DNA from: a virus
Taxonomy: Duplodnaviria > Heunggongvirae > Uroviricota > Caudoviricetes
Length of the DNA: 51,515 nucleotides
Virus record (IMG/VR): IMGVR_UViG_2681813321_000027
Strand: one strand, 5' to 3'
Part shown: piece by piece, positions 5,008 to 24,752 of the stretch
How positions within the stretch are numbered: the first letter of the stretch is position 1
How the letters are laid out: each line of letters starts with the position of its first letter
Position numbers and translations under genes: made by a program
The notes under the pieces: model-generated
The model's database searches: none
Told to the model about the DNA's origin: nothing
The model's input: only the letters and a program-made list of their open reading frames with translations

Positions 5008-7830
5008 ATGACGGCAGAGTACATCAGGGACTGGCAACAACCGCGCCACGCAGTGGGGCGTGAAGGAACGGGGATCCCCGCTCCTGAATCCGCGCTTTCC
5101 TCCTGGCTGGATGCCTACCGGGCAGAGAACGAGCGCCGCCAGGAAATGGCTGATGCGGCGTTCTCCGCCACGCCGCTGGGCAACCTGATTAATAAAAGCC
5201 TGGACGCACAGGAAAAACAGGACAAAACCATCACACTGGCAGGAGACGCCAGAAAACAGGCACGTGGCGCGGTGGATGAAGCCATGGCCTCGCTGCGCCT
5301 GCTGCCGTCCTATCTGCGCGATCCGCTTATTCGCCACCTCTCCTTCCTGCGCAAAAAACAGGAAGCCGATCGCCGGAAAGGCAAAAAGAGCTGGCAGGCT
5401 GAACGCTACGCGTGCGGAACCCTGCGCAAAATATTCGAACGTCTGGACCGCACCGACCACCGCTGGCTGACACCGGGTTATCGCTCCCTTGCCGGACGCG
5501 AACGCCTGGATGATTTGCTTTACCTGCCGCAGCTCAACAAACACCAGATACAGACGCTGGCCACCATGACGGCGGCGATGTTCAGCAGCACCTTCGAAAA
5601 ACTCTGCGATGGCTTTGGCGCGACTGATGGCGAGCTGACCATGGATGTAACGCTGAAGGCTTATCAGATGCTGGCCCGCATGGCGTTACACCTGCACGCC
5701 ATGCCTCCACATTATGACGCACTGACAACAGACAAAGACCGGAGGAACGAACCGGACACGGAGCTGCTGCCGGGCGCAATCCTTCGCTTGACCTGTGCGG
5801 AATGGTGGAAACGCAAACTATGGCTGTTGCGTTGTGAGTGGCGGGAAGAACAACTCCGCGCCGCCTGTCTGGTTTCCAGAAAAACATCCCCCTATCTGAG
5901 CCAGGACGCGTTAAGCGAGTTTCGCGCACAGCGCGAGAAAACACGCGATTTCCTGAAAAGTTTCATGCTGGAAAATGAAGACGGGTTCACGATTGATCTC
6001 GAGACGGTGTATTACGCGGGAGTAAGTAACCCGGTTCACCGTAAGGCAGAAATGATGGCCACCATGAAGGGACTGGAACTTCTGGCCGAAGCCCGTGGCG
6101 ACAGAGCGGTGTTTCTGACCGTCACCTGCCCGTCAAAATACCACGCAACAACGGAGAACGGTCATCCGAACCCCAAATGGAACGGGGCCACCATGCGCGA
6201 CTCCAGCGATTACCTGGTTAACACGTTTTTTGCGGCGGTCCGCAAAAAACTGAACCGCGACGGCCTGCGCTGGTATGGCATCCGCACGGTGGAGCCTCAC
6301 CATGACGGCACTGTGCACTGGCATATGATGGTCTTTGCACATCCGGACGAGATTGAAACCATCGTGTCCCACGTCTGCGATATTGCCATTCAGGAGGGCC
6401 GCCACGAGCTGGGCGATGACATAACTCCGCGTTTTAAGGCGGAGTATGTCGACGGCTCAAAAGGCACACCAACCAGCTACATCGCCACCTACATCGGAAA
6501 GAACCTGGACAGCCGCGCCGTGGATGGCATCGACCCGAAAACGGGCAAGCCACGCGTTGACCACGAAACCGGAAAATCAATGGCCGAGAGCGTGGAGCGC
6601 GCCATCGGCTGGGCGCGCCTTCACCGGGTCCGTCAGTTCCAGTTCTTTGGCATCCCCTCCCGTCAGGTGTGGCGTGAACTGCGCCGCCTTGCCAGCCAGA
6701 TGGCACGCAATCCGGAAGGCCCGCAACGGCTGAAAGATGATGCAATGGATGCGGTACTCGCTGCCGCCGATGCCGGGTGTTTTGCCACCTACATTGAAAA
6801 ACAGGGTGGCGTGCTTGTTCCACGCAAGGACTACCTGATTCGCACCGCCTACGACCTCGCAGATGAGCTGAACGATTACGGCGAACAGAGCGTACAGATT
6901 TACGGGATCTGGTCACCACTCATCGGGGAATCCTCCCGTGTGTGCACGCATCCGGATAACTGGAAGCTGGTAAGACGTAAACCAGAACCGGAAGACAACG
7001 CCCACGAAAATGGTTTTGACCTTCAGGGCGGCCCTGCCGCCCCTTGGACTCGTGGCAATAACTGTCCCCGTGTACAGGAAACGGACGACAACGGGACAGA
7101 ACAGCCGGAAGAACGGCCAGCACCGTGGCCGCAGCTCCCTGACGGCGTTGAAGTGAACGAATGGATGCGCTCACTGAAACGGCACGAACGCCGGGCGCTG
7201 ATGCGTTCGCTTCGTGACAAACAGGCAAAAAACAGCAGTGATGAAATGCAGAGCTGGACACAGAGCCGCAAACAGCAGCGGCCTTTGCCTGATAACCACG
7301 AATTACTCGCTAAAGAATGGCGGGAGTCTGCTGAATCTCTCGGCCTGCATATCGGTGAACAGCAGATGCAGCACCTGTTACGGGGCGGCAGCCTGTACGT
7401 TGACGGCAGCATCATTGCACCGCAGGGATTTGAAATTGTACGCAAACCGGATACCCGACCGGACAGCCGGATCACGCAGCTCTGGCAGCGCCTGAGCCGT
7501 AACCACGGCGTAAGCAGTACGGAGATCCGCCATAACCCGGTCGCCAGCTATCTGGAACAGCTGGGGGCATCAGACCCCGAAGCCGCCGCACGCCTGGCAT
7601 CCACACTTCAGCAGGACCAGAACACCATGAAAACACCCGTTACCGTGCTTTCTGACATGCTGCGCGCCATCCGCGACGCAGAGCACGCACAGAGAATCAG
7701 TGAAACCACTGAACGCGCCCGCCGCAAAGCAGACCTGCTGCGGGGTAGCCTGACCAGTGGAAACAAAAAACAGACAGAAAAGGGATTCACAAATCCCGTA
7801 AATGAGCAAAAAACGCGCCGCGATATATGA
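5008..7830 (+). CDS. A: rolling-circle replication initiator (P2 gpA family)
   Basis: 940 aa; HUH motif VHWHMMVF (about 6316-6336) and two-tyrosine motif YIATYIGK (about 6475-6501); long charged C-terminal region. Confidence 0.85.
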   Translation: MTAEYIRDWQQPRHAVGREGTGIPAPESALSSWLDAYRAENERRQEMADAAFSATPLGNLINKSLDAQEKQDKTITLAGDARKQARGAVDEAMASLRLLPSYLRDPLIRHLSFLRKKQEADRRKGKKSWQAERYACGTLRKIFERLDRTDHRWLTPGYRSLAGRERLDDLLYLPQLNKHQIQTLATMTAAMFSSTFEKLCDGFGATDGELTMDVTLKAYQMLARMALHLHAMPPHYDALTTDKDRRNEPDTELLPGAILRLTCAEWWKRKLWLLRCEWREEQLRAACLVSRKTSPYLSQDALSEFRAQREKTRDFLKSFMLENEDGFTIDLETVYYAGVSNPVHRKAEMMATMKGLELLAEARGDRAVFLTVTCPSKYHATTENGHPNPKWNGATMRDSSDYLVNTFFAAVRKKLNRDGLRWYGIRTVEPHHDGTVHWHMMVFAHPDEIETIVSHVCDIAIQEGRHELGDDITPRFKAEYVDGSKGTPTSYIATYIGKNLDSRAVDGIDPKTGKPRVDHETGKSMAESVERAIGWARLHRVRQFQFFGIPSRQVWRELRRLASQMARNPEGPQRLKDDAMDAVLAAADAGCFATYIEKQGGVLVPRKDYLIRTAYDLADELNDYGEQSVQIYGIWSPLIGESSRVCTHPDNWKLVRRKPEPEDNAHENGFDLQGGPAAPWTRGNNCPRVQETDDNGTEQPEERPAPWPQLPDGVEVNEWMRSLKRHERRALMRSLRDKQAKNSSDEMQSWTQSRKQQRPLPDNHELLAKEWRESAESLGLHIGEQQMQHLLRGGSLYVDGSIIAPQGFEIVRKPDTRPDSRITQLWQRLSRNHGVSSTEIRHNPVASYLEQLGASDPEAAARLASTLQQDQNTMKTPVTVLSDMLRAIRDAEHAQRISETTERARRKADLLRGSLTSGNKKQTEKGFTNPVNEQKTRRDI

Positions 7831-7875
7831 AGCGCGCATAAAACAGGCAAAAACGGGATTTCAGAATCCCGTAAA
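7782..7875. promoter_or_regulatory. paired palindromic repeats upstream of parM (parC-like centromere/operator candidate)
   Basis: gggattcacaaatcccgtaaa (7782-7802, inside the last codons of A) and gggatttcagaatcccgtaaa (7855-7875); each an inverted repeat gggatt-N4-aatccc; copies in repeat units 2 and 3, absent from unit 4. Confidence 0.4.
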
Positions 7876-7906
7876 CGATTAATTAATCAACATAAGGAAA
7901 AGCGAC

Positions 7907-8866
7907 ATGAAAATTTGTATCGATGACGGCTCCACCAACATCAAGCTGGCATGGACTGAGAAGGGCGAACGCCGCAACGCCATCAGCCCAAACAGCTTCA
8001 AGTCGGAATGGTCTGCGCCGTTCGGTGGCACGCAGCCCGCGAACTACATGCTTGATGGCGTGCGCTATGGTTTTGATCCGGTCAGCGATCGCTTTGTCCA
8101 GACGACCGACACGCAATACCAGTACAGCGATGTGAATGTCATTGCCATTCATCACGCGCTGGTCAAATCAGGCATCACACCACAGGAAGTGGATGTGGTT
8201 GTCACCCTGCCACTGAGCGAATATTTCGACACAAACGCACAGCCGGACATGGCCAACATCAATCGCAAAAAAGCAAACGTCATGCGCCCGGTGGCGTACC
8301 AGAACGGAAAAGCATTCACTATCCGTAACGTACGGGTTATGCCTGAATCCATTCCGGCTGGTTTTAAAGCACTGGCTGACATGAGTCCGTTTGAATCCCT
8401 GCTGATTGTGGATTTAGGCGGAACCACGCTGGATGTGGCAAAGGTTCAGGGACAACTGGCAGGTATCAGCCAGGTGTTTTGCGATCCACACGTAGGCGTT
8501 TCCCTGATGGCCGATGCCGTACTGTCGGTGATGGCCACTAACGGTATGCGTACCAGTCACCACATCGCCAATACCATTATCGAACATCGCCATGATGAAG
8601 CCTGGCTGCGCCAGCACATCCACAATGACGCGCATTACGCCAGCCTGATGGCGGTTATTCGTGAAAAGGAAGAAACACTGAAACAACGCGTGTTCCGCGC
8701 GCTGGCGGGTTTTTCGGGTTACGGGCGGGTGATGGTTGTCGGTGGCGGGGCGGAGATTGTGGCACCCGCTATCCGCGAAGCCTGCGGAGTTAATGCGACT
8801 TTCATCGCGGACGGGGTGCCACAGTTTGCTCTGGTTAATGGGCTGTACGCAATGGACAAGGAGTAA
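7907..8866 (+). CDS. parM: ParM/StbA-like actin-fold ATPase
   Basis: 319 aa; MKICIDDGSTNIKLAW, DLGGTTLDV and VVGGGAEI motifs; collinear with plasmid R1 ParM as recalled. Confidence 0.85.
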   Translation: MKICIDDGSTNIKLAWTEKGERRNAISPNSFKSEWSAPFGGTQPANYMLDGVRYGFDPVSDRFVQTTDTQYQYSDVNVIAIHHALVKSGITPQEVDVVVTLPLSEYFDTNAQPDMANINRKKANVMRPVAYQNGKAFTIRNVRVMPESIPAGFKALADMSPFESLLIVDLGGTTLDVAKVQGQLAGISQVFCDPHVGVSLMADAVLSVMATNGMRTSHHIANTIIEHRHDEAWLRQHIHNDAHYASLMAVIREKEETLKQRVFRALAGFSGYGRVMVVGGGAEIVAPAIREACGVNATFIADGVPQFALVNGLYAMDKE

Positions 8867-8870
8867 ACCA

Positions 8871-9182
8871 ATGACGACACCAACCAGACGGATAAGTTTC
8901 TATCTGAAGCCCGCCGCCGTCAAGAACGAAGGCGAAGCATGCGCCTGGCTGGACAGCCTTACACCAGAAGCCCGCAAAAGTGGTCAACGCGTGGCTTTTC
9001 TGGCCGGGCTGGCACTACTGAAAATGAATCCGGCAGAGGCTTACCGACTGGCTGCATGGGCTGATGATGAGGCGTTATCAGTGACACAAACCAGGACAGA
9101 ACGCCCCGCGTCACAGCCAGTACCAACCGCACAGATAACCAGTCAGATGGCCGGAAATATCCGGGCGTTATTTCCCGAATAA
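8871..9182 (+). CDS. parR: ParR-like adaptor (putative)
   Basis: 103 aa from ATG 8871 with aaggag RBS; AFLAGLALL and IRALFPE resemble R1 ParR; directly downstream of parM. Confidence 0.55.
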   Translation: MTTPTRRISFYLKPAAVKNEGEACAWLDSLTPEARKSGQRVAFLAGLALLKMNPAEAYRLAAWADDEALSVTQTRTERPASQPVPTAQITSQMAGNIRALFPE

Positions 9183-9188
9183 CACAAC

Positions 9189-9210
9189 ATCAGGGCGCAT
9201 CCGCCCTGAT
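9189..9210 (+). other. perfect hairpin between parR and zbd gene
   Basis: atcagggcg-catc-cgccctgat, 9-bp stem, 7 nt after parR stop; no strong T-run. Confidence 0.3.
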
Positions 9211-9245
9211 GACTTTAACCCGGGAGCATAAACAAGGGGGACACA

Positions 9246-9578
9246 ATGCAATACATTGACAGAGAAAAAGCGCAGCGACTGATTGAGCGGATGGAAGCGC
9301 TGGCGAAAGAAGAAAATGTCAACATCCAAAAAATAGCTGAATGTGGCCAGATAGTTCTTCGTCGTGAAAAAGACCTCAAACAACTGATGTCTGGCGAAAC
9401 CAGCAAAACATGGACTTCAGGCGAGAAGACGGTTTATTGCAGTTTCTGCAATAAATCCCAGTACGAAGTCACAAAGGTGATTGCCGGACCGTCTGTTTAC
9501 ATCTGCAATGAGTGTGTGGATTTGTGCAATGAAATTATCAGGAAAGAAGTGACAGACAAAAAGGAAAAAAACGCATGA
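9246..9578 (+). CDS. standalone ClpX zinc-binding-domain (C4 zinc finger) homolog
   Basis: 110 aa; C-terminal [38 protein letters not shown] closely matches the ClpX N-terminal ZBD (CxxC...CxxC); no AAA+ module. Confidence 0.75.
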
Positions 9579-9982
9579 ACAGAAAACAGAAACAAGAGTT
9601 GAAATACTTCTTACGTAAAGAAATTGCCAGGCTTGAAGATGCAGAGTCACAATCATCAGAAATTCCGTTCGGAATGGATATCAACGACGCCCGTATGCTT
9701 CAGGCATACCGTATAGCTCAGGCTGCACTACAGACAAAACCGTTAAATAACATACATGAAAAGTATGATTATTTTACGGATACCGCTTGCTTGCTGACAT
9801 CTGAAGAACAAAAGATAGCCCAACTTTTAGGCGACGCATGGAACCTGTATTTAACATTGCCAGTTGAGCATCCAATGGGTAGAGATGAATTTTGCCGGGC
9901 AATTCATCATTGCCAAAATATGGTGTTGGCACGCCCGGCCATCAGGGCGCTGGCCAGGAAGGGGCAAGGCTATAAAAGATAA
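9575..9982 (+). CDS. hypothetical protein co-translated with zbd
   Basis: 135 aa; ATGA overlap with zbd stop; no recognised domain. Confidence 0.55.
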
Positions 9983-9984
9983 GT

Positions 9985-10014
9985 AAAACGCCCTCCTCCA
10001 GGGCGTTTATTTCA
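9985..10014 (+). terminator. intrinsic terminator of the accessory operon
   Basis: aaacgccct-cctcc-agggcgttt followed by atttc; copies at about 16976, 25492, 33377. Confidence 0.6.
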
Positions 10015-10467
10015 ATGCACAATAGTGCACAAATTTGCACAATTTTTTTGAACGACTGTTTACCCTTCCAGCCCGTATAGCGGCTGGATCCGTCAAGGAT
10101 CCGTGCGTGCACAAAAAAACGCGCTTTTTCTGCGCGCAGGTGACGGGGGAACAGCCCGCGTTTCAGGGGGTAAATAGCATTCCCTGAACGATGTCGCAGA
10201 GACACAACAGAATGGCTGTATTTCTCACTCTGAGCGTGAAAAATACGTGAGGGATTCTGATTTGATGGGGTGAAAGGTAAGGCCGTCAAAATCGCACTGA
10301 GGCGGCGAAGAACATGCAGTCAACGCGGTGGGATTGCGTAAGAGTCTGACCGCCGATGATGGCAATAAGCAGAAAAGCGTCGTGAAATTATCTGATTGAT
10401 ACAGGAGCTGGAGAGCCGGGGCATAAATTTTTTATGCCCCGGCGAAGCAGCAGACAAGCGAAGCGCG
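10015..10467. other. cos / packaging region (candidate)
   Basis: 453-bp non-coding region in the P2 cos position next to the Q stop; three tgcacaa direct repeats (10015-10045), 13-bp-stem hairpin 10415-10443, G-rich tract gaggcggcgaagaacatgc at about 10298-10316. Confidence 0.4.
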
Positions 10468-11514
10468 TCAGGATGTGGGCTGGGTATCTAACAGTGCGTA
10501 AGGGTTAAAGCGGATCACCTCTTCGCCAAGCCAGTCATTGATGTGCTTCATGGCCTCCATGACGGGCATCAGCTCGTTAATTGCGTAAACCCGCGCGGCC
10601 TTCTCCACATCACCAAACGCACTTTTTTCACCCGGCATCGCCCCCATAAGTTGCGGCGGAACGCGGTGCGCAGCCAGCACATCATCACGGGATGCCGCCT
10701 TAACATTCATGAACTCATCCTTTGCGGTGATCTGCTGGAACGGCAAAATTTGCACCCCCTCTTTGCCCCCGTTGGGCGCATGAATGAGCACGTTTTTAAA
10801 CGCACCGCCACCACGTGCACCCTGTAGCGTTTCTTTCAGGGAGTCCATGCTTTCGCGGTTTACCTGCGCTGCACCGATGTAGATGATGCACCCGGCGTGG
10901 GATCCGTTGTCGTAATACAGTTTTCTGAACATGTCCGCCGAATGAGACAGGCTGGCCGAGAGTAATGCGCCGAGATATTCCGGCATGCCGTAGATTTCCT
11001 GGTTAATGTCAGGATTCATCAGGTGGCACACTTTGCCAGGGCGAAACTGGAACGCATCCTTGCCATCCTGCACATACCACCATGATTCAAGATCGCTACC
11101 GCGTCGCATGTATTTCGCCAGGGCGTGCCGTAATTTAAGCGGTTCGCCGAGCATATTGCTTCGAAGCTCAAGGAATGCGTTACCGAACACAAACCAGTCC
11201 AGCGCCAGCGCCGAGAAATCCTGCCGGGAAAGCAGCGGGTGCGGGATGTAGCAACCGAGTAATACATTGCGCTTAAAGTAAAGCGCAGACTGATGCCAGG
11301 ACGTTTGCCGGGCAGCTCTTGCCAGACCGTACCAGTCCACCGGGGTTTCATACCACCGCCCGTTATCAGCACAGTACATATTGTCCAGCAGGTCATGCCC
11401 GGTCAGGCGATAAGGACCATCAAATGTGAATGCACTGAGCGACGATTCTTTCCTGAGCGCATCAGCGAGATCAATGCGTGAACTCATGCGCACTTTTTTA
11501 TTTTTTCTGCTCAT
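10468..11514 (-). CDS. Q: portal protein (P2 gpQ family)
   Basis: 348 aa; size and position match P2 Q; ATGA overlap with P. Confidence 0.85.
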   Translation of the reverse strand: MSRKNKKVRMSSRIDLADALRKESSLSAFTFDGPYRLTGHDLLDNMYCADNGRWYETPVDWYGLARAARQTSWHQSALYFKRNVLLGCYIPHPLLSRQDFSALALDWFVFGNAFLELRSNMLGEPLKLRHALAKYMRRGSDLESWWYVQDGKDAFQFRPGKVCHLMNPDINQEIYGMPEYLGALLSASLSHSADMFRKLYYDNGSHAGCIIYIGAAQVNRESMDSLKETLQGARGGGAFKNVLIHAPNGGKEGVQILPFQQITAKDEFMNVKAASRDDVLAAHRVPPQLMGAMPGEKSAFGDVEKAARVYAINELMPVMEAMKHINDWLGEEVIRFNPYALLDTQPTS

Positions 11515-13229
11515 CAGAACTCCATAACCGTGAAACGCTCGTTTTCTCCTTCGCCGCCAATCGGTTCGTTAATGACAGCAAGCATGGTTGCCCACGCAAG
11601 GTCGCCGTGGCTGATCCCCCTCGCGCGGTCCGTTTCGTAAGTGATAAAGCCGCCCGGTGTTTTCACCTTACGCACGGCGTTAAAGGCCGCGACCAGCTCG
11701 CGTTCGGCGCGATCGTATTCCCACCGCCCGGCACGCATTATTTGCAGCATTTTCAGTACCAGCGACCGTTTTGATGACAGCGTGAAGGTGTACGGAATAG
11801 CAGCAGGGAAAAACCGTTTCACTATCTGATAAACAGCCTCCCCGTTCCCGCCCGTCACATCAATGCCGATGTGTTCCACGTTGTAGCGATACGTGAACTC
11901 TTCAATGACTCTGGCCTGTTCTTCAAACTCCAGCCCCTGAACGCGTCTCGTCTCCACCGTTCGAAAACGGCCACCAGGAACAGCCGGAGGAACCACCACG
12001 GACACAGCGCCGCTGTCGCCGTTGCCACTGCTGCCGTTTGCGTCATACCCAATCCATACCGGACGATTCCCCATCGGGCGGGGAGCAAAAGGTTTCCAGT
12101 CTTTCCAGTCGTCGTATCCGTCAACACCGCAGCCAATCAGGATATTCAGGTTAAATGCCGATTCCCCTTCGCGGACAAACTCACACATATAGAGATTGAG
12201 GAACTCGTCTTCGGTGTTTTCATCACGAATTTCGTCGATATCGGTGTGTTTCCAGCCGTGATTAACCACATCTTCCAGCGTGACAATTTGCCGCCACGTC
12301 CGGTCAGGGCAGATAAGCCCGTTATGCAGCGTTTTCCAGTCCACAGAAAAACGCTGGCGTTTATGCGAGGCCTTTTTCTCGTTCCAGCGGTCGCCGTTCC
12401 AGTAGGCGTATGCCTCGTGCGTTTCGGTGGATGGCGTGGAGAAGTAGGTGCGTCGCAGCCCGCTGAGGGTTGCCATAGCGCCAGCCACCTTGCGCAGTTC
12501 AGCAAAGCGACTGACCCAGAAAAATTCATCAAAATAAAAATTGCCCGTATAGGACTGTGCCGTCGCAGCAGAAGTACCGAGAAAATGCAGTTCTGCGCCG
12601 TTGGAGAGGATGATTTTATCGCCCCCTTTCAGCTCCACATCAACTTCAGCCGCGGCCTTCTGAATAATGCTTTTAAACTGGAACGCCTGACGACGCGACG
12701 CAGACAAAAAAATCTGGTTACGCTGGTAAGGTTGTGCCACATCGTCACGCAGCGCCATCAGCAGTGCTTCCTGTGCAAAATACCAGGTCGCCCCAATCTG
12801 TCGGGATTTCAGGATCATCCTGTTACGTATCCCGGCTTCACTGCAAAGGGTCAGGGAGTCAAACCAGCCCCGCTGATGCCACTCCAGCCTGCTGATGATT
12901 TTTTCCCGCAGTGCGGCAATCTGTTCCGGCGTGAAATGATTTTTGAGTTTTTTCGCCCGGCCTTTCTTTCCTGCGGCCGTCACATCCGGCTGGCCATCAT
13001 GCAGCTTTTTAAGCTGCCGGGTCAGCAGGTCTATTTCCTTAAAGTCACCACCTGTTTTATTCTGTTTTTCAGTAAGCTGGATGAGACGCGCATCGATGGA
13101 CTGCGTGACACGCTGCACGGGTGGCGTTTCATCCCACTGGTCGCGTTTTTTCCACGCATAAATCGTGTTCGGGTTTATTCCCATCAGACGTGATATTTCT
13201 GCGGGCGGATAACCCTGCCAGTAAAGTTG
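11514..13229 (-). pseudogene. P: terminase ATPase subunit gpP, 5'-truncated at junction J1
   Basis: matches full P copies from about residue 13 onward; upstream part of the 605-aa track ORF is antisense A sequence. Confidence 0.7.
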
Positions 13230-13231
13230 AC
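13229..13231. other. junction J1: P 5' region / orphan A / internal A (= 6240)
   Basis: ...gtaaagttg + a + ccgcaaaaaactg...; compared with intact copies at 20220 and 6240. Confidence 0.85.
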
Positions 13232-14821
13232 CGCAAAAAACTGAACCGCGACGGCCTGCGCTGGTATGGCATCCGCACGGTGGAGCCTCACCATGACGGC
13301 ACTGTGCACTGGCATATGATGGTCTTTGCACATCCGGACGAGATTGAAACCATCGTGTCCCACGTCTGCGATATTGCCATTCAGGAGGGCCGCCACGAGC
13401 TGGGCGATGACATAACTCCGCGTTTTAAGGCGGAGTATGTCGACGGCTCAAAAGGCACACCAACCAGCTACATCGCCACCTACATCGGAAAGAACCTGGA
13501 CAGCCGCGCCGTGGATGGCATCGACCCGAAAACGGGCAAGCCACGCGTTGACCACGAAACCGGAAAATCAATGGCCGAGAGCGTGGAGCGCGCCATCGGC
13601 TGGGCGCGCCTTCACCGGGTCCGTCAGTTCCAGTTCTTTGGCATCCCCTCCCGTCAGGTGTGGCGTGAACTGCGCCGCCTTGCCAGCCAGATGGCACGCA
13701 ATCCGGAAGGCCCGCAACGGCTGAAAGATGATGCAATGGATGCGGTACTCGCTGCCGCCGATGCCGGGTGTTTTGCCACCTACATTGAAAAACAGGGTGG
13801 CGTGCTTGTTCCACGCAAGGACTACCTGATTCGCACCGCCTACGACCTCGCAGATGAGCTGAACGATTACGGCGAACAGAGCGTACAGATTTACGGGATC
13901 TGGTCACCACTCATCGGGGAATCCTCCCGTGTGTGCACGCATCCGGATAACTGGAAGCTGGTAAGACGTAAACCAGAACCGGAAGACAACGCCCACGAAA
14001 ATGGTTTTGACCTTCAGGGCGGCCCTGCCGCCCCTTGGACTCGTGGCAATAACTGTCCCCGTGTACAGGAAACGGACGACAACGGGACAGAACAGCCGGA
14101 AGAACGGCCAGCACCGTGGCCGCAGCTCCCTGACGGCGTTGAAGTGAACGAATGGATGCGCTCACTGAAACGGCACGAACGCCGGGCGCTGATGCGTTCG
14201 CTTCGTGACAAACAGGCAAAAAACAGCAGTGATGAAATGCAGAGCTGGACACAGAGCCGCAAACAGCAGCGGCCTTTGCCTGATAACCACGAATTACTCG
14301 CTAAAGAATGGCGGGAGTCTGCTGAATCTCTCGGCCTGCATATCGGTGAACAGCAGATGCAGCACCTGTTACGGGGCGGCAGCCTGTACGTTGACGGCAG
14401 CATCATTGCACCGCAGGGATTTGAAATTGTACGCAAACCGGATACCCGACCGGACAGCCGGATCACGCAGCTCTGGCAGCGCCTGAGCCGTAACCACGGC
14501 GTAAGCAGTACGGAGATCCGCCATAACCCGGTCGCCAGCTATCTGGAACAGCTGGGGGCATCAGACCCCGAAGCCGCCGCACGCCTGGCATCCACACTTC
14601 AGCAGGACCAGAACACCATGAAAACACCCGTTACCGTGCTTTCTGACATGCTGCGCGCCATCCGCGACGCAGAGCACGCACAGAGAATCAGTGAAACCAC
14701 TGAACGCGCCCGCCGCAAAGCAGACCTGCTGCGGGGTAGCCTGACCAGTGGAAACAAAAAACAGACAGAAAAGGGATTCACAAATCCCGTAAATGAGCAA
14801 AAAACGCGCCGCGATATATGA
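13231..14821 (+). pseudogene. A: 3' fragment of A (about residues 412-940), no start
   Basis: identical to 6240-7830. Confidence 0.8.
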
Positions 14822-14897
14822 AGCGCGCATAAAACAGGCAAAAACGGGATTTCAGAATCCCGTAAACGATTAATTAATCAACATAAGGAAAAGCGAC

Positions 14898-15857
14898 ATG
14901 AAAATTTGTATCGATGACGGCTCCACCAACATCAAGCTGGCATGGACTGAGAAGGGCGAACGCCGCAACGCCATCAGCCCAAACAGCTTCAAGTCGGAAT
15001 GGTCTGCGCCGTTCGGTGGCACGCAGCCCGCGAACTACATGCTTGATGGCGTGCGCTATGGTTTTGATCCGGTCAGCGATCGCTTTGTCCAGACGACCGA
15101 CACGCAATACCAGTACAGCGATGTGAATGTCATTGCCATTCATCACGCGCTGGTCAAATCAGGCATCACACCACAGGAAGTGGATGTGGTTGTCACCCTG
15201 CCACTGAGCGAATATTTCGACACAAACGCACAGCCGGACATGGCCAACATCAATCGCAAAAAAGCAAACGTCATGCGCCCGGTGGCGTACCAGAACGGAA
15301 AAGCATTCACTATCCGTAACGTACGGGTTATGCCTGAATCCATTCCGGCTGGTTTTAAAGCACTGGCTGACATGAGTCCGTTTGAATCCCTGCTGATTGT
15401 GGATTTAGGCGGAACCACGCTGGATGTGGCAAAGGTTCAGGGACAACTGGCAGGTATCAGCCAGGTGTTTTGCGATCCACACGTAGGCGTTTCCCTGATG
15501 GCCGATGCCGTACTGTCGGTGATGGCCACTAACGGTATGCGTACCAGTCACCACATCGCCAATACCATTATCGAACATCGCCATGATGAAGCCTGGCTGC
15601 GCCAGCACATCCACAATGACGCGCATTACGCCAGCCTGATGGCGGTTATTCGTGAAAAGGAAGAAACACTGAAACAACGCGTGTTCCGCGCGCTGGCGGG
15701 TTTTTCGGGTTACGGGCGGGTGATGGTTGTCGGTGGCGGGGCGGAGATTGTGGCACCCGCTATCCGCGAAGCCTGCGGAGTTAATGCGACTTTCATCGCG
15801 GACGGGGTGCCACAGTTTGCTCTGGTTAATGGGCTGTACGCAATGGACAAGGAGTAA
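14898..15857 (+). CDS. parM: ParM-like ATPase, copy 2
   Basis: identical protein, offset +6991. Confidence 0.8.
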   Translation: MKICIDDGSTNIKLAWTEKGERRNAISPNSFKSEWSAPFGGTQPANYMLDGVRYGFDPVSDRFVQTTDTQYQYSDVNVIAIHHALVKSGITPQEVDVVVTLPLSEYFDTNAQPDMANINRKKANVMRPVAYQNGKAFTIRNVRVMPESIPAGFKALADMSPFESLLIVDLGGTTLDVAKVQGQLAGISQVFCDPHVGVSLMADAVLSVMATNGMRTSHHIANTIIEHRHDEAWLRQHIHNDAHYASLMAVIREKEETLKQRVFRALAGFSGYGRVMVVGGGAEIVAPAIREACGVNATFIADGVPQFALVNGLYAMDKE

Positions 15858-15861
15858 ACCA

Positions 15862-16173
15862 ATGACGACACCAACCAGACGGATAAGTTTCTATCTGAAG
15901 CCCGCCGCCGTCAAGAACGAAGGCGAAGCATGCGCCTGGCTGGACAGCCTTACACCAGAAGCCCGCAAAAGTGGTCAACGCGTGGCTTTTCTGGCCGGGC
16001 TGGCACTACTGAAAATGAATCCGGCAGAGGCTTACCGACTGGCTGCATGGGCTGATGATGAGGCGTTATCAGTGACACAAACCAGGACAGAACGCCCCGC
16101 GTCACAGCCAGTACCAACCGCACAGATAACCAGTCAGATGGCCGGAAATATCCGGGCGTTATTTCCCGAATAA
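15862..16173 (+). CDS. parR: ParR-like, copy 2
   Basis: offset +6991. Confidence 0.5.
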   Translation: MTTPTRRISFYLKPAAVKNEGEACAWLDSLTPEARKSGQRVAFLAGLALLKMNPAEAYRLAAWADDEALSVTQTRTERPASQPVPTAQITSQMAGNIRALFPE

Positions 16174-16236
16174 CACAACATCAGGGCGCATCCGCCCTGA
16201 TGACTTTAACCCGGGAGCATAAACAAGGGGGACACA

Positions 16237-16569
16237 ATGCAATACATTGACAGAGAAAAAGCGCAGCGACTGATTGAGCGGATGGAAGCGCTGGCGAAAG
16301 AAGAAAATGTCAACATCCAAAAAATAGCTGAATGTGGCCAGATAGTTCTTCGTCGTGAAAAAGACCTCAAACAACTGATGTCTGGCGAAACCAGCAAAAC
16401 ATGGACTTCAGGCGAGAAGACGGTTTATTGCAGTTTCTGCAATAAATCCCAGTACGAAGTCACAAAGGTGATTGCCGGACCGTCTGTTTACATCTGCAAT
16501 GAGTGTGTGGATTTGTGCAATGAAATTATCAGGAAAGAAGTGACAGACAAAAAGGAAAAAAACGCATGA
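16237..16569 (+). CDS. ClpX ZBD homolog, copy 2
   Basis: offset +6991. Confidence 0.7.
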
Positions 16570-16973
16570 ACAGAAAACAGAAACAAGAGTTGAAATACTT
16601 CTTACGTAAAGAAATTGCCAGGCTTGAAGATGCAGAGTCACAATCATCAGAAATTCCGTTCGGAATGGATATCAACGACGCCCGTATGCTTCAGGCATAC
16701 CGTATAGCTCAGGCTGCACTACAGACAAAACCGTTAAATAACATACATGAAAAGTATGATTATTTTACGGATACCGCTTGCTTGCTGACATCTGAAGAAC
16801 AAAAGATAGCCCAACTTTTAGGCGACGCATGGAACCTGTATTTAACATTGCCAGTTGAGCATCCAATGGGTAGAGATGAATTTTGCCGGGCAATTCATCA
16901 TTGCCAAAATATGGTGTTGGCACGCCCGGCCATCAGGGCGCTGGCCAGGAAGGGGCAAGGCTATAAAAGATAA
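16566..16973 (+). CDS. hypothetical 135-aa protein, copy 2
   Basis: offset +6991. Confidence 0.5.
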
Positions 16974-17458
16974 GTAAAACGCCCTCCTCCAGGGCGTTTA
17001 TTTCAATGCACAATAGTGCACAAATTTGCACAATTTTTTTGAACGACTGTTTACCCTTCCAGCCCGTATAGCGGCTGGATCCGTCAAGGATCCGTGCGTG
17101 CACAAAAAAACGCGCTTTTTCTGCGCGCAGGTGACGGGGGAACAGCCCGCGTTTCAGGGGGTAAATAGCATTCCCTGAACGATGTCGCAGAGACACAACA
17201 GAATGGCTGTATTTCTCACTCTGAGCGTGAAAAATACGTGAGGGATTCTGATTTGATGGGGTGAAAGGTAAGGCCGTCAAAATCGCACTGAGGCGGCGAA
17301 GAACATGCAGTCAACGCGGTGGGATTGCGTAAGAGTCTGACTGTCGATGATGGCAATCAGCAGGAAAGCGTCGTGAAATTATCTGACTGATACAGGAGCT
17401 GGAGAGTCGGGGCATAAATTTTTTATGCCCCGGCGAAGCAGCAGACAAGCGAAGCGCG

Positions 17459-18505
17459 TCAGGATGTGGGCTGGGTGTCTAACAGTGCGTAAGGGTTAAA
17501 GCGGATCACCTCTTCGCCAAGCCAGTCATTGATGTGCTTCATGGCCTCCATGACGGGCATCAGCTCGTTAATTGCGTAAACCCGCGCGGCCTTCTCCACA
17601 TCACCAAACGCACTTTTTTCACCCGGCATCGCCCCCATAAGTTGCGGCGGAACGCGGTGCGCAGCCAGCACATCATCACGGGATGCCGCCTTAACATTCA
17701 TGAACTCATCCTTTGCGGTGATCTGCTGGAACGGCAAAATTTGCACCCCCTCTTTGCCCCCGTTGGGCGCATGAATGAGCACGTTTTTAAACGCACCGCC
17801 ACCACGTGCACCCTGTAGCGTTTCTTTCAGGGAGTCCATGCTTTCGCGGTTTACCTGCGCTGCACCGATGTAGATGATGCACCCGGCGTGGGATCCGTTG
17901 TCGTAATACAGTTTTCTGAACATGTCCGCCGAATGAGACAGGCTGGCCGAGAGTAATGCGCCGAGATATTCCGGCATGCCGTAGATTTCCTGGTTAATGT
18001 CAGGATTCATCAGGTGGCACACTTTGCCAGGGCGAAACTGGAACGCATCCTTGCCATCCTGCACATACCACCATGATTCAAGATCGCTACCGCGTCGCAT
18101 GTATTTCGCCAGGGCGTGCCGTAATTTAAGCGGTTCGCCGAGCATATTGCTTCGAAGCTCAAGGAATGCGTTACCGAACACAAACCAGTCCAGCGCCAGC
18201 GCCGAGAAATCCTGCCGGGAAAGCAGCGGGTGCGGGATGTAGCAACCGAGTAATACATTGCGCTTAAAGTAAAGCGCAGACTGATGCCAGGACGTTTGCC
18301 GGGCAGCTCTTGCCAGACCGTACCAGTCCACCGGGGTTTCATACCACCGCCCGTTATCAGCACAGTACATATTGTCCAGCAGGTCATGCCCGGTCAGGCG
18401 ATAAGGACCATCAAATGTGAATGCACTGAGCGACGATTCTTTCCTGAGCGCATCAGCGAGATCAATGCGTGAACTCATGCGCACTTTTTTATTTTTTCTG
18501 CTCAT
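17459..18505 (-). CDS. Q: portal gpQ, copy 2
   Basis: identical protein. Confidence 0.85.
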   Translation of the reverse strand: MSRKNKKVRMSSRIDLADALRKESSLSAFTFDGPYRLTGHDLLDNMYCADNGRWYETPVDWYGLARAARQTSWHQSALYFKRNVLLGCYIPHPLLSRQDFSALALDWFVFGNAFLELRSNMLGEPLKLRHALAKYMRRGSDLESWWYVQDGKDAFQFRPGKVCHLMNPDINQEIYGMPEYLGALLSASLSHSADMFRKLYYDNGSHAGCIIYIGAAQVNRESMDSLKETLQGARGGGAFKNVLIHAPNGGKEGVQILPFQQITAKDEFMNVKAASRDDVLAAHRVPPQLMGAMPGEKSAFGDVEKAARVYAINELMPVMEAMKHINDWLGEEVIRFNPYALLDTQPTS

Positions 18506-20256
18506 CAGAACTCCATAACCGTGAAACGCTCGTTTTCTCCTTCGCCGCCAATCGGTTCGTTAATGACAGCAAGCATGGTTGCCCACGCAAGGTCGCCGTG
18601 GCTGATCCCCCTCGCGCGGTCCGTTTCGTAAGTGATAAAGCCGCCCGGTGTTTTCACCTTACGCACGGCGTTAAAGGCCGCGACCAGCTCGCGTTCGGCG
18701 CGATCGTATTCCCACCGCCCGGCACGCATTATTTGCAGCATTTTCAGTACCAGCGACCGTTTTGATGACAGCGTGAAGGTGTACGGAATAGCAGCAGGGA
18801 AAAACCGTTTCACTATCTGATAAACAGCCTCCCCGTTCCCGCCCGTCACATCAATGCCGATGTGTTCCACGTTGTAGCGATACGTGAACTCTTCAATGAC
18901 TCTGGCCTGTTCTTCAAACTCCAGCCCCTGAACGCGTCTCGTCTCCACCGTTCGAAAACGGCCACCAGGAACAGCCGGAGGAACCACCACGGACACAGCG
19001 CCGCTGTCGCCGTTGCCACTGCTGCCGTTTGCGTCATACCCAATCCATACCGGACGATTCCCCATCGGGCGGGGAGCAAAAGGTTTCCAGTCTTTCCAGT
19101 CGTCGTATCCGTCAACACCGCAGCCAATCAGGATATTCAGGTTAAATGCCGATTCCCCTTCGCGGACAAACTCACACATATAGAGATTGAGGAACTCGTC
19201 TTCGGTGTTTTCATCACGAATTTCGTCGATATCGGTGTGTTTCCAGCCGTGATTAACCACATCTTCCAGCGTGACAATTTGCCGCCACGTCCGGTCAGGG
19301 CAGATAAGCCCGTTATGCAGCGTTTTCCAGTCCACAGAAAAACGCTGGCGTTTATGCGAGGCCTTTTTCTCGTTCCAGCGGTCGCCGTTCCAGTAGGCGT
19401 ATGCCTCGTGCGTTTCGGTGGATGGCGTGGAGAAGTAGGTGCGTCGCAGCCCGCTGAGGGTTGCCATAGCGCCAGCCACCTTGCGCAGTTCAGCAAAGCG
19501 ACTGACCCAGAAAAATTCATCAAAATAAAAATTGCCCGTATAGGACTGTGCCGTCGCAGCAGAAGTACCGAGAAAATGCAGTTCTGCGCCGTTGGAGAGG
19601 ATGATTTTATCGCCCCCTTTCAGCTCCACATCAACTTCAGCCGCGGCCTTCTGAATAATGCTTTTAAACTGGAACGCCTGACGACGCGACGCAGACAAAA
19701 AAATCTGGTTACGCTGGTAAGGTTGTGCCACATCGTCACGCAGCGCCATCAGCAGTGCTTCCTGTGCAAAATACCAGGTCGCCCCAATCTGTCGGGATTT
19801 CAGGATCATCCTGTTACGTATCCCGGCTTCACTGCAAAGGGTCAGGGAGTCAAACCAGCCCCGCTGATGCCACTCCAGCCTGCTGATGATTTTTTCCCGC
19901 AGTGCGGCAATCTGTTCCGGCGTGAAATGATTTTTGAGTTTTTTCGCCCGGCCTTTCTTTCCTGCGGCCGTCACATCCGGCTGGCCATCATGCAGCTTTT
20001 TAAGCTGCCGGGTCAGCAGGTCTATTTCCTTAAAGTCACCACCTGTTTTATTCTGTTTTTCAGTAAGCTGGATGAGACGCGCATCGATGGACTGCGTGAC
20101 ACGCTGCACGGGTGGCGTTTCATCCCACTGGTCGCGTTTTTTCCACGCATAAATCGTGTTCGGGTTTATTCCCATCAGACGTGATATTTCTGCGGGCGGA
20201 TAACCCTGCCAGTAAAGTTGTCGCGCACGCTGGCGTACAAAAGCGTCCTGAATCAT
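18505..20256 (-). CDS. P: terminase ATPase subunit gpP (full length, 583 aa)
   Basis: large conserved ORF divergent from O, overlapping Q start. Confidence 0.85.
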   Translation of the reverse strand: MIQDAFVRQRARQLYWQGYPPAEISRLMGINPNTIYAWKKRDQWDETPPVQRVTQSIDARLIQLTEKQNKTGGDFKEIDLLTRQLKKLHDGQPDVTAAGKKGRAKKLKNHFTPEQIAALREKIISRLEWHQRGWFDSLTLCSEAGIRNRMILKSRQIGATWYFAQEALLMALRDDVAQPYQRNQIFLSASRRQAFQFKSIIQKAAAEVDVELKGGDKIILSNGAELHFLGTSAATAQSYTGNFYFDEFFWVSRFAELRKVAGAMATLSGLRRTYFSTPSTETHEAYAYWNGDRWNEKKASHKRQRFSVDWKTLHNGLICPDRTWRQIVTLEDVVNHGWKHTDIDEIRDENTEDEFLNLYMCEFVREGESAFNLNILIGCGVDGYDDWKDWKPFAPRPMGNRPVWIGYDANGSSGNGDSGAVSVVVPPAVPGGRFRTVETRRVQGLEFEEQARVIEEFTYRYNVEHIGIDVTGGNGEAVYQIVKRFFPAAIPYTFTLSSKRSLVLKMLQIMRAGRWEYDRAERELVAAFNAVRKVKTPGGFITYETDRARGISHGDLAWATMLAVINEPIGGEGENERFTVMEF

Positions 20257-20410
20257 TGCTCCCCCTGAGTAATTACAGGAAGATTACCCGCGCGCGAAAC
20301 CGTTCTCCTTAACCCCCTGTTCTGGCCGTTTTCTTACAACAAAAGCCCTTTGTATCAGCCTGTTACGCTTTGCCATCATGACTGAAGAACCAGTCAGAGG
20401 GGCAAAAACT
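20257..20410. promoter_or_regulatory. divergent late promoter region (P leftward, O rightward)
   Basis: 154-bp gap between divergent P and O; TGT...ACA dyad candidates; copies at 28773-28926 and 36658-36811. Confidence 0.4.
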
Positions 20411-21247
20411 ATGGCTAATGAAAAAAAGACATCCCGCAAAAAGTTTCGCGTGGCTGTCTCCGGATTAACTGTTGATGGACGTGAAATCAGCCCGGTACAT
20501 CTGCGTGAAGCCGCCGAGAACTTCAACCCGGATGTTTACGCTGCCCGCGTGAACGTTGAGCACTATCTCTCGCCATGCCCGTCAAGCGAATTTTCCGCAA
20601 TGGGCGATGTCACCGCGCTGAGTACGGAAGATATTACGGAAGGCCCGCTGGCCGGACGTACTGCGCTGTATGCAGAAATCGAACCGACCGAGCGCATGAA
20701 GCAGCTTGTCGCTGACGGCAAGAAAATCTATTCCAGTATCGAACTGCACCCGCAGTTCTCCGTTAACGGGCGCGCCTATCTGGTCGGGCTGGCGATGACC
20801 GACACCCCGGCAAGCCTGGGCACTGAGCGCCTGAAATTCACGGCACAGCAGCGTCAGGCGGTGATGACGTTCAACAGTATCCAGGGTGAAGCACCGCTTA
20901 TCTCCGAAGCCATCGAGTCTGAAATCATCGAAATGGCAGAACAACGCCAGGAAGAAGGCACCCAGTGGTTTAACCGCGTAATGGGAATTATTGGTCGTGG
21001 CCGCAAAGCGGATGACGCCAGTTTCTCCCGTATTCAGGAAGCGGTGGAAGGCGTCGCAACGTCACAGGCCGACATTATCGACCGTTTTAATGTGCTGGAA
21101 ACCCGCCATCAGCAGGACCGCCAGAAAATCACGTCACTGACCACAGAGCTGACAGCACTGAAGGAAAAACTGCGCACGCAGGACAGCGATCCGCAGAACC
21201 GCTTCACCGCAACGGGCGCAGCCTCCGACCAGCTGGCTGACTTCTGA
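20411..21247 (+). CDS. O: capsid scaffold protein (P2 gpO family)
   Basis: 278 aa from ATG 20411; YLVGLAMTDTPASLGTE matches P2 gpO as recalled. Confidence 0.85.
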   Translation: MANEKKTSRKKFRVAVSGLTVDGREISPVHLREAAENFNPDVYAARVNVEHYLSPCPSSEFSAMGDVTALSTEDITEGPLAGRTALYAEIEPTERMKQLVADGKKIYSSIELHPQFSVNGRAYLVGLAMTDTPASLGTERLKFTAQQRQAVMTFNSIQGEAPLISEAIESEIIEMAEQRQEEGTQWFNRVMGIIGRGRKADDASFSRIQEAVEGVATSQADIIDRFNVLETRHQQDRQKITSLTTELTALKEKLRTQDSDPQNRFTATGAASDQLADF

Positions 21248-21270
21248 TAAGACAAAGGAGCAAATTTTTT

Positions 21271-22323
21271 ATGAATCTGGTGATGTCAGATATTACCCGC
21301 AACAAGCTGGGTTGCTATATGGCGCAGCAGGCGTCGCTTAACAATATCCCGGTTTCCGCACTGGTATCGCGATTTACCGTGGAACCCTCGGTACAGCAGC
21401 GTTTTGAAAACGCCTCAAAGGAAAGCACCGAATTTACAAAAAGAATTAACGTGATCGGCGTGACCGACCAGAAAGGCGAAAAAATCCTCCTGGACACCAC
21501 CGGGCCAATTGCACGCACGAATACCAGTTATGACGGCACAAAACGCCGTAACCCGAATAACGTGGTTGATCTGAAAAACCGCAAATACCAGTGCGAACAG
21601 GTGAACTACGACACGTTTATTTCATATCCGCAGCTTGATGCCTGGGCGGCACATCCTGATTTTCAGTCCCGCATCAGCGCACAGATTGCCCGACAGGTGG
21701 CGCTTGACCGCATCATGATCGGTTTCAACGGCACGTCTCACGCGGATGAGTCCAACTTCAGCACCAACAAGCTGCTTCAGGACGTTAACGTGGGCTGGCT
21801 GGAGCACATCAGAACCGACGCCAGCGAGCGCGTTATGAATGACGTAACGCTGACCTCCCGCAACATGGACAACACCGTGGCGCACGCGGGTAAGTATGCG
21901 AACGCTGATGCACTGGTACAGGACGCACGCTCATCCCTGCTGGATGAATGGCACAAGGAAGCTGACGACCTCGTGGTGATTATGGGGCGCAACCTGTTTA
22001 ACTCGCTGCGTCTGCCCGTGCTGAACAGTATCAGCGGCCAGAATCCCAATGCGGAATTACTTGCCGGGCAGCTCATCCTGTCATCGCGCACCATTGGCGG
22101 GCTGGGCGTGTTCCTTGCGCCGTTCTTCCCGGATGCAACGATGCTGATCACCTCGTTCAACAACCTGTCGATTTACTGGCAGAAAGGTTCAATGCGTCGT
22201 CTGATGAAAGACGAACCGGAATACAACCGCATCGCCACCTACCAGTCCATCAATGACGCTTATGTCGTTGAAGACTATGGCAAGTGCGCGATGGTCACTG
22301 GCCTGAAGTTCGCCGACAGCTAA
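21271..22323 (+). CDS. N: major capsid protein (P2 gpN family)
   Basis: 350 aa; aaggag RBS; FTVEPSV, IMIGFNG, NLSIYW and YVVEDY motifs match P2 gpN. Confidence 0.9.
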   Translation: MNLVMSDITRNKLGCYMAQQASLNNIPVSALVSRFTVEPSVQQRFENASKESTEFTKRINVIGVTDQKGEKILLDTTGPIARTNTSYDGTKRRNPNNVVDLKNRKYQCEQVNYDTFISYPQLDAWAAHPDFQSRISAQIARQVALDRIMIGFNGTSHADESNFSTNKLLQDVNVGWLEHIRTDASERVMNDVTLTSRNMDNTVAHAGKYANADALVQDARSSLLDEWHKEADDLVVIMGRNLFNSLRLPVLNSISGQNPNAELLAGQLILSSRTIGGLGVFLAPFFPDATMLITSFNNLSIYWQKGSMRRLMKDEPEYNRIATYQSINDAYVVEDYGKCAMVTGLKFADS

Positions 22324-22368
22324 TCAACTCACGGCGGGCATCATGCCCGCCTGTAACGGAGAGAAAAA

Positions 22369-22559
22369 ATGATTACTCCTGCACAGCAACACTGGCAGAA
22401 CGTGATGGCACAGCGCGCAGGCCGGGCGAATGAAGGCGTGGACCACGCCGCGCGTACCGCGCATGAAGAGGTGCTGTATCGTCTGCGTCTGGCACAGGCC
22501 CGGCTTAAGGGCGTACAGGCCAGAAGCGCGAAAGCCGCCATCAAAAAAGAGTTATTGCC
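22369..22559 (+). pseudogene. M: terminase small subunit gpM, first 63 codons only (fused to A at J2)
   Basis: identical to start of full M at 38770; track ORF 22369-23337 is an M::A chimera. Confidence 0.8.
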
Positions 22560-22561
22560 AG
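22559..22561. other. junction J2: M / orphan A / internal A (= 7054)
   Basis: ...gagttattgcc + a + ggcaataactgtcccc... Confidence 0.85.
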
Positions 22562-23337: not shown

Positions 23338-23413
23338 AGCGCGCATAAAACAGGCAAAAACGGGATTTCAGAATCCCGTAAACGATTAATTAATCAACAT
23401 AAGGAAAAGCGAC

Positions 23414-24373: not shown

Positions 24374-24377
24374 ACCA

Positions 24378-24689: not shown

Positions 24690-24752
24690 CACAACATCAG
24701 GGCGCATCCGCCCTGATGACTTTAACCCGGGAGCATAAACAAGGGGGACACA

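Follow-up and report, generated by a model that had tools for sequence, protein, structure and literature searches.

In phages of the P2 type, DNA packaging uses monomeric circles. P2, 186 and P4 have 19-nt 5′ cohesive ends and a 55-bp conserved core, the latter credited to Ziermann & Calendar 1990 (cited in PMC9594776, PMC3931495 and PMC5694545). For phiRSA1, a Ralstonia phage of the P2 family, a cohesive end has also been mapped, 5′-GGTGAGGCGGGGTCCAAC-3′, which begins GGTGAGGCGGGG (PMC5694545). We have studied a candidate cohesive-end site (cos) in a stretch of 51,515 nucleotides, here called the window, which is IMG/VR virus record IMGVR_UViG_2681813321_000027 and is a P88-like (Xuanwuvirus, Peduoviridae) phage of the P2 family. 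In our opinion, the segment from 10016 to ~10160-10180 is the cos packaging site of this phage, a reading to which we give a probability of about 80%. It would be an expected feature, in which the architecture of P2 is found with a changed repeat word and a diverged cut sequence, and no new kind of system. Outside the P2 family, the cos site of lambda offers a further comparison, with its cosQ-cosN-cosB order, the small-terminase sites R3, R2 and R1, the integration host factor (IHF) site I1 and a 12-nt overhang. The site proposed here would follow the same logic, in which the small terminase has several short repeats on one side of the nicking site and the DNA in between is bent; however, sequence and proteins are unrelated, the repeats are 3+1 in number with a 72-bp gap, and the IHF consensus WATCAANNNNTTR has no match in 9983-10467.

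The location of the site agrees with the gene order. The nearest phages are P88-like, with 92-95% identity (megablast/blastn against 50,697 phage records), and the genes come in the order gpA, ParM/ParR cargo, cos region, portal Q, TerL P, scaffold O, capsid N and TerS M, with the Pfam families Phage_GPA, Phage_portal, Terminase_5/6N/6C, Phage_GPO, Phage_cap_P2 and Phage_term_smal in P2 order. Identity to the P2 proteins by BLASTP is 36% for M, 44% for P, 47% for Q and 42% for N, and the large terminase P has an N-terminal helix-turn-helix (HTH) domain of the gpP type (Pfam). The region 9983-10467 is bounded by a plus-strand open reading frame (ORF) of 135 aa (9575-9982) and by the minus-strand ORF 10468-11514, which is Q. 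A previous inspection of the letters without database searches (the sequence-only reading) had expected cos here by synteny with P2, and this is borne out: the region sits between the cargo hotspot and Q, in the P2-type order, a position shared with P2, 186 and P4 together with a homologous gpM/gpP terminase. The elements of the proposed module are the following.

10016-10022, 10026-10032 and 10036-10042, plus strand: three copies of TGCACAA at an exact spacing of 10 bp, proposed as a distal terminase-recognition array.
10043-10049, plus strand: T7 tract directly after the third repeat, kept in the P88-like clade.
10050-10107: spacer of fixed length and variable sequence, holding a dyad and a GGATCCG pair.
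10068-10073 and 10082-10087: the dyad CCAGCC/GGCTGG, within the spacer.
10108-10114, plus strand: fourth TGCACAA, followed by a run of A, 72 bp past the third repeat and 29-31 bp ahead of the core.
10132-10160, plus strand: core of the cosN type, GCGCGCAGGTGACGGGGGAACAGCCCGCG, with a predicted 5′ cohesive end that starts at 10136-10139 and ends at 10154-10157.

The geometry of these elements can be set beside that of P2, 186 and P4. The records of P2, 186 and P4 annotate their cohesive ends, and the right arms were read from the top-strand nick (P2, L005, 1453-1551; 186, L006, 1102-1201; P4, L008, 302-401). All three have TGCAT at -123/-124, -111, -101 and -29 from the annotated nick. A scan of IMG/VR for the P2-type core gave 111 distinct cos sites (from loci L130-L249), and TGCA(T/C) is found at the four positions in 18, 18, 18 and 19 of 19 P4-like satellites and in 25, 48, 56 and 77 of 81 phages. 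Since the P4-like satellites share essentially nothing else with their helpers, the TGCAT array should be part of what the P2 terminase needs. The TGCACAA copies of the window stand at -121, -111, -101 and -29 if the nick is placed at 10137, and the 72 bp from the third to the fourth copy are those of P2, 186 and P4, so the repeats occupy relative to the core the positions that TGCAT occupies relative to the mapped nick. This agreement is not attributable to chance, because a particular 7-mer should turn up at a position fixed in advance only ~4^-7 of the time (6e-5). The comparison supports the view that the TGCACAA repeats behave as part of the packaging signal.

Three tgcacaa direct repeats at helical spacing had already been noticed in the sequence-only reading; they are present, with their span corrected from 10015-10045 to 10016-10042, and such a triple pattern is expected 0.00 times (100 dinucleotide shuffles). 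The count of three holds for the array, but the fourth copy at 10108 had been missed. With it, four of the eight non-redundant TGCACAA sites of the window fall within these 100 bp. The window thus shares with P2, 186 and P4 a G-rich core ~29-31 bp past a repeat of the TGCA type and three further copies ~100-125 bp upstream. It differs from P2 in the repeat itself (TGCACAA versus TGCAT), in the spacing within the triplet (10/10 versus 12-13/10), in the core (GGTGACGGGGGAACAG versus GGCGAGGCGGGGAAAGCAC) and its distance from the fourth repeat (31 versus 29 nt), in the spacer between cos and Q (~310 bp versus ~165 bp) and in the conserved T7 tract after the triplet, where P2, 186 and P4 have no T-run. 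The three upstream TGCAT copies of P2-type sites fall outside the 55-bp core that is usually quoted, and the 3+1 array appears to be little described: no accessible literature describes TGCAT repeats in P2 cos, although Ziermann & Calendar 1990 may already do so. No description of a P88-type cos was found in the accessible literature, the P88 paper included.

The same geometry is maintained over a wide range of relatives. A scan for the triple repeat (set A) gave more than 120 viral contigs and 26 hits in species-representative genomes, from ~20 Enterobacterales genera, and a retrieval based on the core, independent of the triple, gave 72 metagenome contigs. The distance from the third to the fourth repeat is 72 bp in 88 of 93 relatives and is kept across the ~20 genera, and the core begins 31 bp past the fourth repeat in 80 relatives and 29 bp past it in lineages with a P2-like core. 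Among the 30 most divergent relatives, the T-run and the fourth repeat each keep a conservation of 0.87 and the core 10132-10160 one of 0.91, the G-rich tract being the best-conserved block after the repeats. The values for the other segments are 0.43 for the spacer 10050-10107, 0.33 for 10119-10131, 0.32 for 10181-10414, 0.21 for the hairpin downstream of Q and 0.62 for the 3′ end of Q; upstream of 10016 conservation falls to 0.28-0.42, and for the flanking segments overall it is 0.2-0.45. The 72 contigs retrieved with the core retain the triple, with repeats 2 and 3 nearly invariant. The first repeat and the spacers account for most of their variation, and the hexamer just upstream takes 29 different forms. 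The lineages with TGCACAA form one clade, in which TerL is 66-79% identical to that of the window and ~45% identical to that of P2.

Within the upstream half of the module, columns 28-32 of alignment A1 (MAFFT), in the T7 tract, are invariant, and the tract is likely an intrinsic bend or a spacer. As to the dyad, some GC-rich dyad is found in the spacer of each lineage, and in a test for compensatory changes 77% of positions were paired against 74% in shuffles, with few double changes and a register that shifts between lineages. The duplicated ggatccg motifs of the sequence-only reading exist as GGATCCG-N4-GGATCCG at 10086-10103, above a chance expectation of 0.03, but they are specific to the lineage, and other genera have other sequence in their place.

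The limits of the module can be read from the relatives and from a satellite-like element. On the left, homology to phages with other cargo begins at the first repeat, 10016; on the right, the part shared with other genera, 10016-10160/10169, breaks off and similarity resumes only in Q. An element of ~12.2 kb with a P88-type cos module, found in L125 (1-12700), L110, L345 and contig QAKE01000006.1, has no more in common with the window than 10016-10175/10181 (81%) and an integrase-like gene, and it lacks portal and terminase. Its genes in L125/L110 encode a P4-type integrase, a repressor, a primase, a 236-aa protein, a 470-aa homologue of the P2-family capsid protein and MazF, and the complete 12.2-kb QAKE01000006.1 has P4 epsilon-like (42%) and delta-like (29%) genes too. 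The primase is large, a second integrase is 55% identical to that of the window, and the capsid homologue is 36-40% identical to gpN. The element has the appearance of a P4 relative with a capsid gene and with P88-like phages as its helpers. As P4 copies the cos module of its helper P2, so this element carries the P88-type module, and from these limits we propose a functional module of ~145-165 bp, from 10016 to ~10160-10180.

The link between the core of the window and that of P2 is provided by intermediate lineages. Five lineages (L012, L048, L050, L051 and L105) have TGCACAA repeats together with a P2-like core, GGCGAGGCGGGGG, 29 nt past the fourth repeat, and their TerL is 66-67% identical to that of the window and 45% to that of P2. 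They are matched by a profile of P2 cos at E = 1e-9 to 1e-6, and many other members of the TGCACAA clade at E = 1e-4 to 1e-2; the profile alignments are in register, with triplet on triplet, fourth repeat on fourth repeat and core on core. The core of these bridging lineages reads GGCGAGGCGGGGGAGCAAG followed by CGCGCGC and aligns with window 10137-10154 (MAFFT), from which the core of the window would be a derived variant, GGTGAC-GGGGGAACAG, with one base fewer inside its conserved GC-rich flanks. The coexistence of TGCACAA with a P2-like core in the five lineages implies that repeat word and cut sequence diverged at different times. Moreover, the mapped cohesive end of phiRSA1 begins with GGTGA and then a run of G, like the GGTGACGGGGG of the window, and therefore P2-core variants of this type are real cohesive ends; phiRSA1 differs in its distant host and is said to keep the 55-bp P2 core (PMC5694545).

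For the top-strand nick, the fourth repeat plus 29 and the alignment with the bridging lineages both give 10137, and matching GGTGA to GGCGA gives 10139. For the bottom strand, the bridging alignment places the nick between 10154 and 10155. Our best guess for the cohesive end is (G)CAGGTGACGGGGGAACAG, 10136/10137-10154, and either nick could be off by ~3 nt. A candidate physical end is found in QAKE01000006.1 (L334 + L338), which has a terminal overlap of 507 nt around a unit of 12,207 nt. Its start (L334 1-30) reads TACACATCT followed by CTGTCCCCCCGTCACCTGCGCGCG, also given as TACACATCT followed by CTGTCCCCCCGTCACC, and in the orientation of the window ...GCGCGCAGGTGACGGGGGGACAG and then AGATGTGTA. 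The cos core ends there as ...GGTGACGGGGGGACAG (...GGGGGGACAG), its last base corresponding to window 10154, and the 9 nt that follow are identical to the first 9 nt of the Tn5 mosaic end, an adapter residue. The internal copy of the cos site in the same contig reads straight through. A branch capped by an adapter at one base is as expected from a right cohesive end that has been filled in at window 10154, and we consider it suggestive. The contig is binned as a 'Bacillota MAG', surely a binning error. Three other boundaries were considered and discarded: that of record LR595891 (window 10060/10061), whose ends are contiguous, without terminal redundancy, and which falls inside the variable spacer; the end of L310 at 10179, which has no adapter and was taken as arbitrary; and that of L347 at ...AACAGC, which is not a contig end.

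Several points weigh against reading the segment as cos, or narrow what can be said of it. Between the P2 cohesive end and the G-rich tract GGTGACGGGGGAACAGCCC (10139-10157), 13 of 19 positions agree, and alone this is at chance level, as 10 sites score at least 13 in ~24 kb of non-redundant sequence; the P2 19-nt cohesive end, GGCG(A/T)GGCGGGGAAAGCA(C/T), has no match in the window at up to 3 mismatches. With megablast and blastn, the matches among the 50,697 phage records were limited to P88-like phages and phiT5282H, with no P2 or 186, and an nhmmer profile of 109 P2-type cos sites has no match in the window or in the 485-bp intergenic region. Set A was retrieved with the triple repeat as pattern, and this accounts for part of the conservation that the repeat has there. 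The adapter-terminated contig is a single observation and its adapter does not have the usual read-through orientation, and no pile-up of contig ends at the core is seen among the 72 metagenome contigs or 120 IMG/VR loci. In addition, naming gpM as the protein that binds the repeats, rather than the HTH domain of gpP or a host factor, is a guess. The partial resemblance to the P2/186 core that the sequence-only reading had noted is retained only in another form: the tract does align with the P2 cohesive end, but through intermediates, and the alignment to P2 and 186 cos that had been suggested as a check fails by direct blastn or nhmmer and works transitively, via the TGCACAA lineages that match the P2-cos profile. 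Direct homology of the window core to P2/186 cos is not claimable; what points to cos is the architecture together with transitive homology.

Starting from the observed elements, their geometry and conservation, their correspondence with P2, 186 and P4 and their retention in the satellite-like elements, we infer how protein binding to the repeats, looping, nicking and termination may be arranged. The terminase, gpM plus gpP, would recognize the four TGCACAA copies, three of them on one face of the helix at 10016-10042. The spacer of fixed length would let the distal array and the proximal copy at 10108 cooperate by looping or bending, with the aid of the T7 tract, and the nuclease would be positioned on the core 10132-10160, where staggered nicks would leave a 5′ end of ~18-19 nt, from ~10137 to ~10154. 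The segment 10161-10414 would be a dispensable spacer, and the hairpin at 10415-10443 would end transcription of P-Q before it reaches cos. The features around the module are the following.

5008-7830: replication protein gpA, 940 aa.
9986-10008, plus strand: terminator-like hairpin with a T-rich tail that closes the cargo operon (135-aa ORF), fold z = -5.05, left bound of the cos module.
10119-10137, minus strand: short GC hairpin ACGCGC...GCGCGC and then a T7 run, terminator-like, abutting the core, lineage-specific.
10161-10414: lineage-specific spacer between cos and the putative Q terminator, with a purine-rich plus strand (A 0.30, G 0.31, C 0.18).
10415-10443, minus strand: hairpin GCCGGGGCATAAA/TTTATGCCCCGGC, with a perfect 13-bp stem and a 3-nt loop, starting 25 nt past the stop codon of Q.
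10468-11514, minus strand: portal gene Q, its product 47% identical to P2 gpQ, which serves as synteny anchor.
38770-39570: gpM, small terminase.

Other explanations differ in which part of this scheme they leave standing. The region could be cos with the repeats and the T7 tract forming an architectural or insulating element, that is, a bend, a site for a nucleoid protein or a weak plus-strand terminator, whose GTGCA...TGCAC stem and T-run would keep cargo transcription out of cosN. TGCA is indeed self-complementary, the T7 tract is conserved, and the terminator scan lists a terminator-like site at 10025-10040, on the plus strand, followed by the T-run; yet P2, 186 and P4 have TGCAT triplets at the same positions with no T-run, a stronger terminator is already present at 9986-10008, and the fourth copy, always 72 bp away, falls within the segment that corresponds to the published 55-bp core. 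The lack of an IHF consensus in the region also speaks against a purely architectural role. An arrangement of direct repeats along one face of the helix is what an oligomeric small terminase would need, as with the R sites of lambda, and we regard the insulating alternative, including the transcriptional role of the stem, as improbable. That the repeats belong to the cargo, as a parC-type centromere for the ParM/ParR cassette 7907-9182 or as operators of a cargo gene or a regulatory gene, is suggested by ParM and ParR-like (Plasmid_stab_B) genes 0.8-2 kb upstream and by the fact that ParR centromeres are arrays of short direct repeats. But among 61 related loci with enough upstream DNA, 29 have ParM/ParR and 32 lack it with the triple repeat retained, and since the repeats are present with or without these genes a parC role is ruled out; the variable cargo stops exactly at the first repeat, satellite-like elements without ParM/ParR cargo keep the repeats, and the same geometry is found in P4, which has no such genes. 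We give a cargo role of any kind almost no credit. It is hardly more credible that the cut is made elsewhere, at the G-rich GGCGGCGAAGAACATGCAG near 10303 or at 10410, and that the block 10132-10160 has another role: the 13/19 match of 10139-10157 to P2 lacks significance by itself, and 10410 reaches 12/19, but 10181-10414 is unconserved between genera (0.32) and missing in the satellite-like elements, whose DNA also has to be cut and packaged, and it is the block 10132-10160 that lies 29-31 bp from the fourth repeat as in P2 and that has a P2-like core in the bridging lineages.

For the hairpin at 10415-10443 the choice is less clear. The sequence-only reading had described a perfect hairpin just downstream of Q and proposed it as the Q terminator. 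The hairpin is real and stable, with z = -6.2 for the Q-sense strand and -5.5 for its complement, none of 200 shuffles folding as well and -33.5 kcal/mol in a 76-nt context, and its position is that of P2 tQ and 186 tW, which are likewise GC-rich hairpins immediately past the portal gene on the Q-sense strand. We think it a plausible counterpart of these at the end of the P-Q operon. Against termination, no U-tract follows on either strand (the Q-sense strand continues UCUCCAGC, the other GAAGCAGC), and the terminator scan, which works by consensus, did not list it; the absence of a U-tract leaves terminator activity no more than plausible, and it distinguishes this longer (13 bp) hairpin from P2 tQ, which has one. 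The stem could instead be a 3′ stabilizer or processing site of the P-Q mRNA, or a DNA element linked to packaging (a cruciform or a protein site), which would agree with a stem almost equally stable on both strands, with the missing U-tract and with outer pairs that are mismatched on the Q-sense strand in most relatives (CCCCGAC). We consider this unlikely, though deserving more weight than the alternatives above, as the hairpin starts 25 nt past the Q stop codon, where the P2 and 186 terminators are annotated, each lineage has its own, unrelated hairpin at this spot, some with T-rich tails, and the satellite-like elements lack it. With a conservation of 0.21 beyond the E. coli lineage, it does not belong to the shared cos module, and a terminator of P-Q is still the function that we prefer for it.

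If the segment is the cos of P88-like phages, it would be of use in several ways. P88-like prophages are common, with the cos-plus-Q region found in 1146 of 5426 complete E. coli genomes (~21%), yet their cos is unannotated in RefSeq, and the P88 entry (NC_026014.1) has no cos feature. A module of ~160 bp would show which DNA is packageable by a P88-type helper, with use for cosmids, transducing particles and satellite mobilization, and it would explain why the cargo hotspot stops exactly at 10016. TGCAT and TGCACAA would also be a natural recognition pair for studying how P2-family terminases read DNA. More tentatively, and with the odds rather against it, we propose that the 3+1 array of TGCA-type repeats is a general code of P2-family terminases, and that the change from TGCAT to TGCACAA with a co-diverged cut defines a separate packaging-specificity group with its own dedicated satellites. 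Such a group would be present in ~21% of complete E. coli genomes and in ~20 Enterobacterales genera, and its satellites would be P4 relatives encoding a homologue of the P2-family capsid protein.

Some observations concern the DNA on both sides of the nick. The short hairpin at 10119-10137 was rejected as a functional element, as it is not conserved and its fold is no better than that of shuffles; P2 and 186 have a comparable small hairpin with TTTT at the same place. Between cos and the hairpin downstream of Q, no conserved element was found in 10161-10414, which is not alignable between genera, and Rfam gave nothing at E ≤ 1 on 9500-10700. The plus strand is purine-rich and C-poor over window 10158-10414, and on that strand the left arms of P2 (20-159) and 186 (20-163) are G/T-rich by eye. 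Because of this composition, read-through RNA of the Q sense would be G-poor and pyrimidine-rich, which might favour Rho-dependent termination ahead of cos. In RefSeq P88 (NC_026014.1), tiny hypothetical coding sequences (CDSs) of 47 and 42 aa, 10994-11137 and 11157-11285, run over the cos core and the spacer, at about window 10113-10404; LR595891 annotates another tiny CDS there, and the ORF list of the window has none at the same coordinates. These CDSs are probably spurious.

The cos region is present four times, since the window holds nested, near-identical segmental duplications. Besides the copy described above, there are the following.

17007-17458, plus strand: copy 2, offset +6991, with 6 substitutions at the equivalents of 10351-10416, including 10416 in the hairpin.
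25523-25974, plus strand: copy 3, offset +15507, identical to copy 1 across the region.
33408-33859, plus strand: copy 4, offset +23392, identical to copy 1 across the region.

The duplications (6240-13235 = 13231-20227; 14045-22559 = 22561-31075; 23384-31267 = 31269-39152; 42431-46658 = 46657-50883) are nested and in tandem, with ~99.8-99.9% identity, and the copies differ only in clustered patches of single-nucleotide polymorphisms, for example at 10351-10486, 10801-11098 and 12453-13086. The junctions at 13233, 22560, 31268 and 46657 have 0-5 nt of microhomology. In L090, a near-identical prophage in IMG/VR, the region is present once and the sequence runs on without a break where the window has its first junction, a junction that is absent from the 5426 complete E. 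coli genomes. The duplications are probably an artefact of the assembly or of the record. Four direct cos sites 7-8.5 kb apart would not be packageable as one genome.

The left neighbourhood of cos has features of its own. In the gpA-type ORF 5008-7830, the Phage_GPA domain covers residues 179-503 only, and the long C-terminal part has no Pfam match. The cargo hotspot beside cos, 7907-9982, encodes a ParM/StbA actin-like segregation ATPase (7907-8866), a ParR-like Plasmid_stab_B protein (~8736-9182), a protein with a ClpX-type C4 zinc finger (9246-9578) and the 135-aa product of 9575-9982, which has no Pfam match. The ParM/ParR pair occurs in about half of the related prophages and hints at a plasmid-like or partition-assisted state. 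Some P88-like prophages (H11-H14, H72-H83) have in addition an insertion of ~613 bp, annotated as a hypothetical protein, at the equivalent of window ~10470-10600. It separates the hairpin region from the 3′ end of Q and is another small cargo site, to the left of cos, of the kind reported for phiCTX and phiRSY1.

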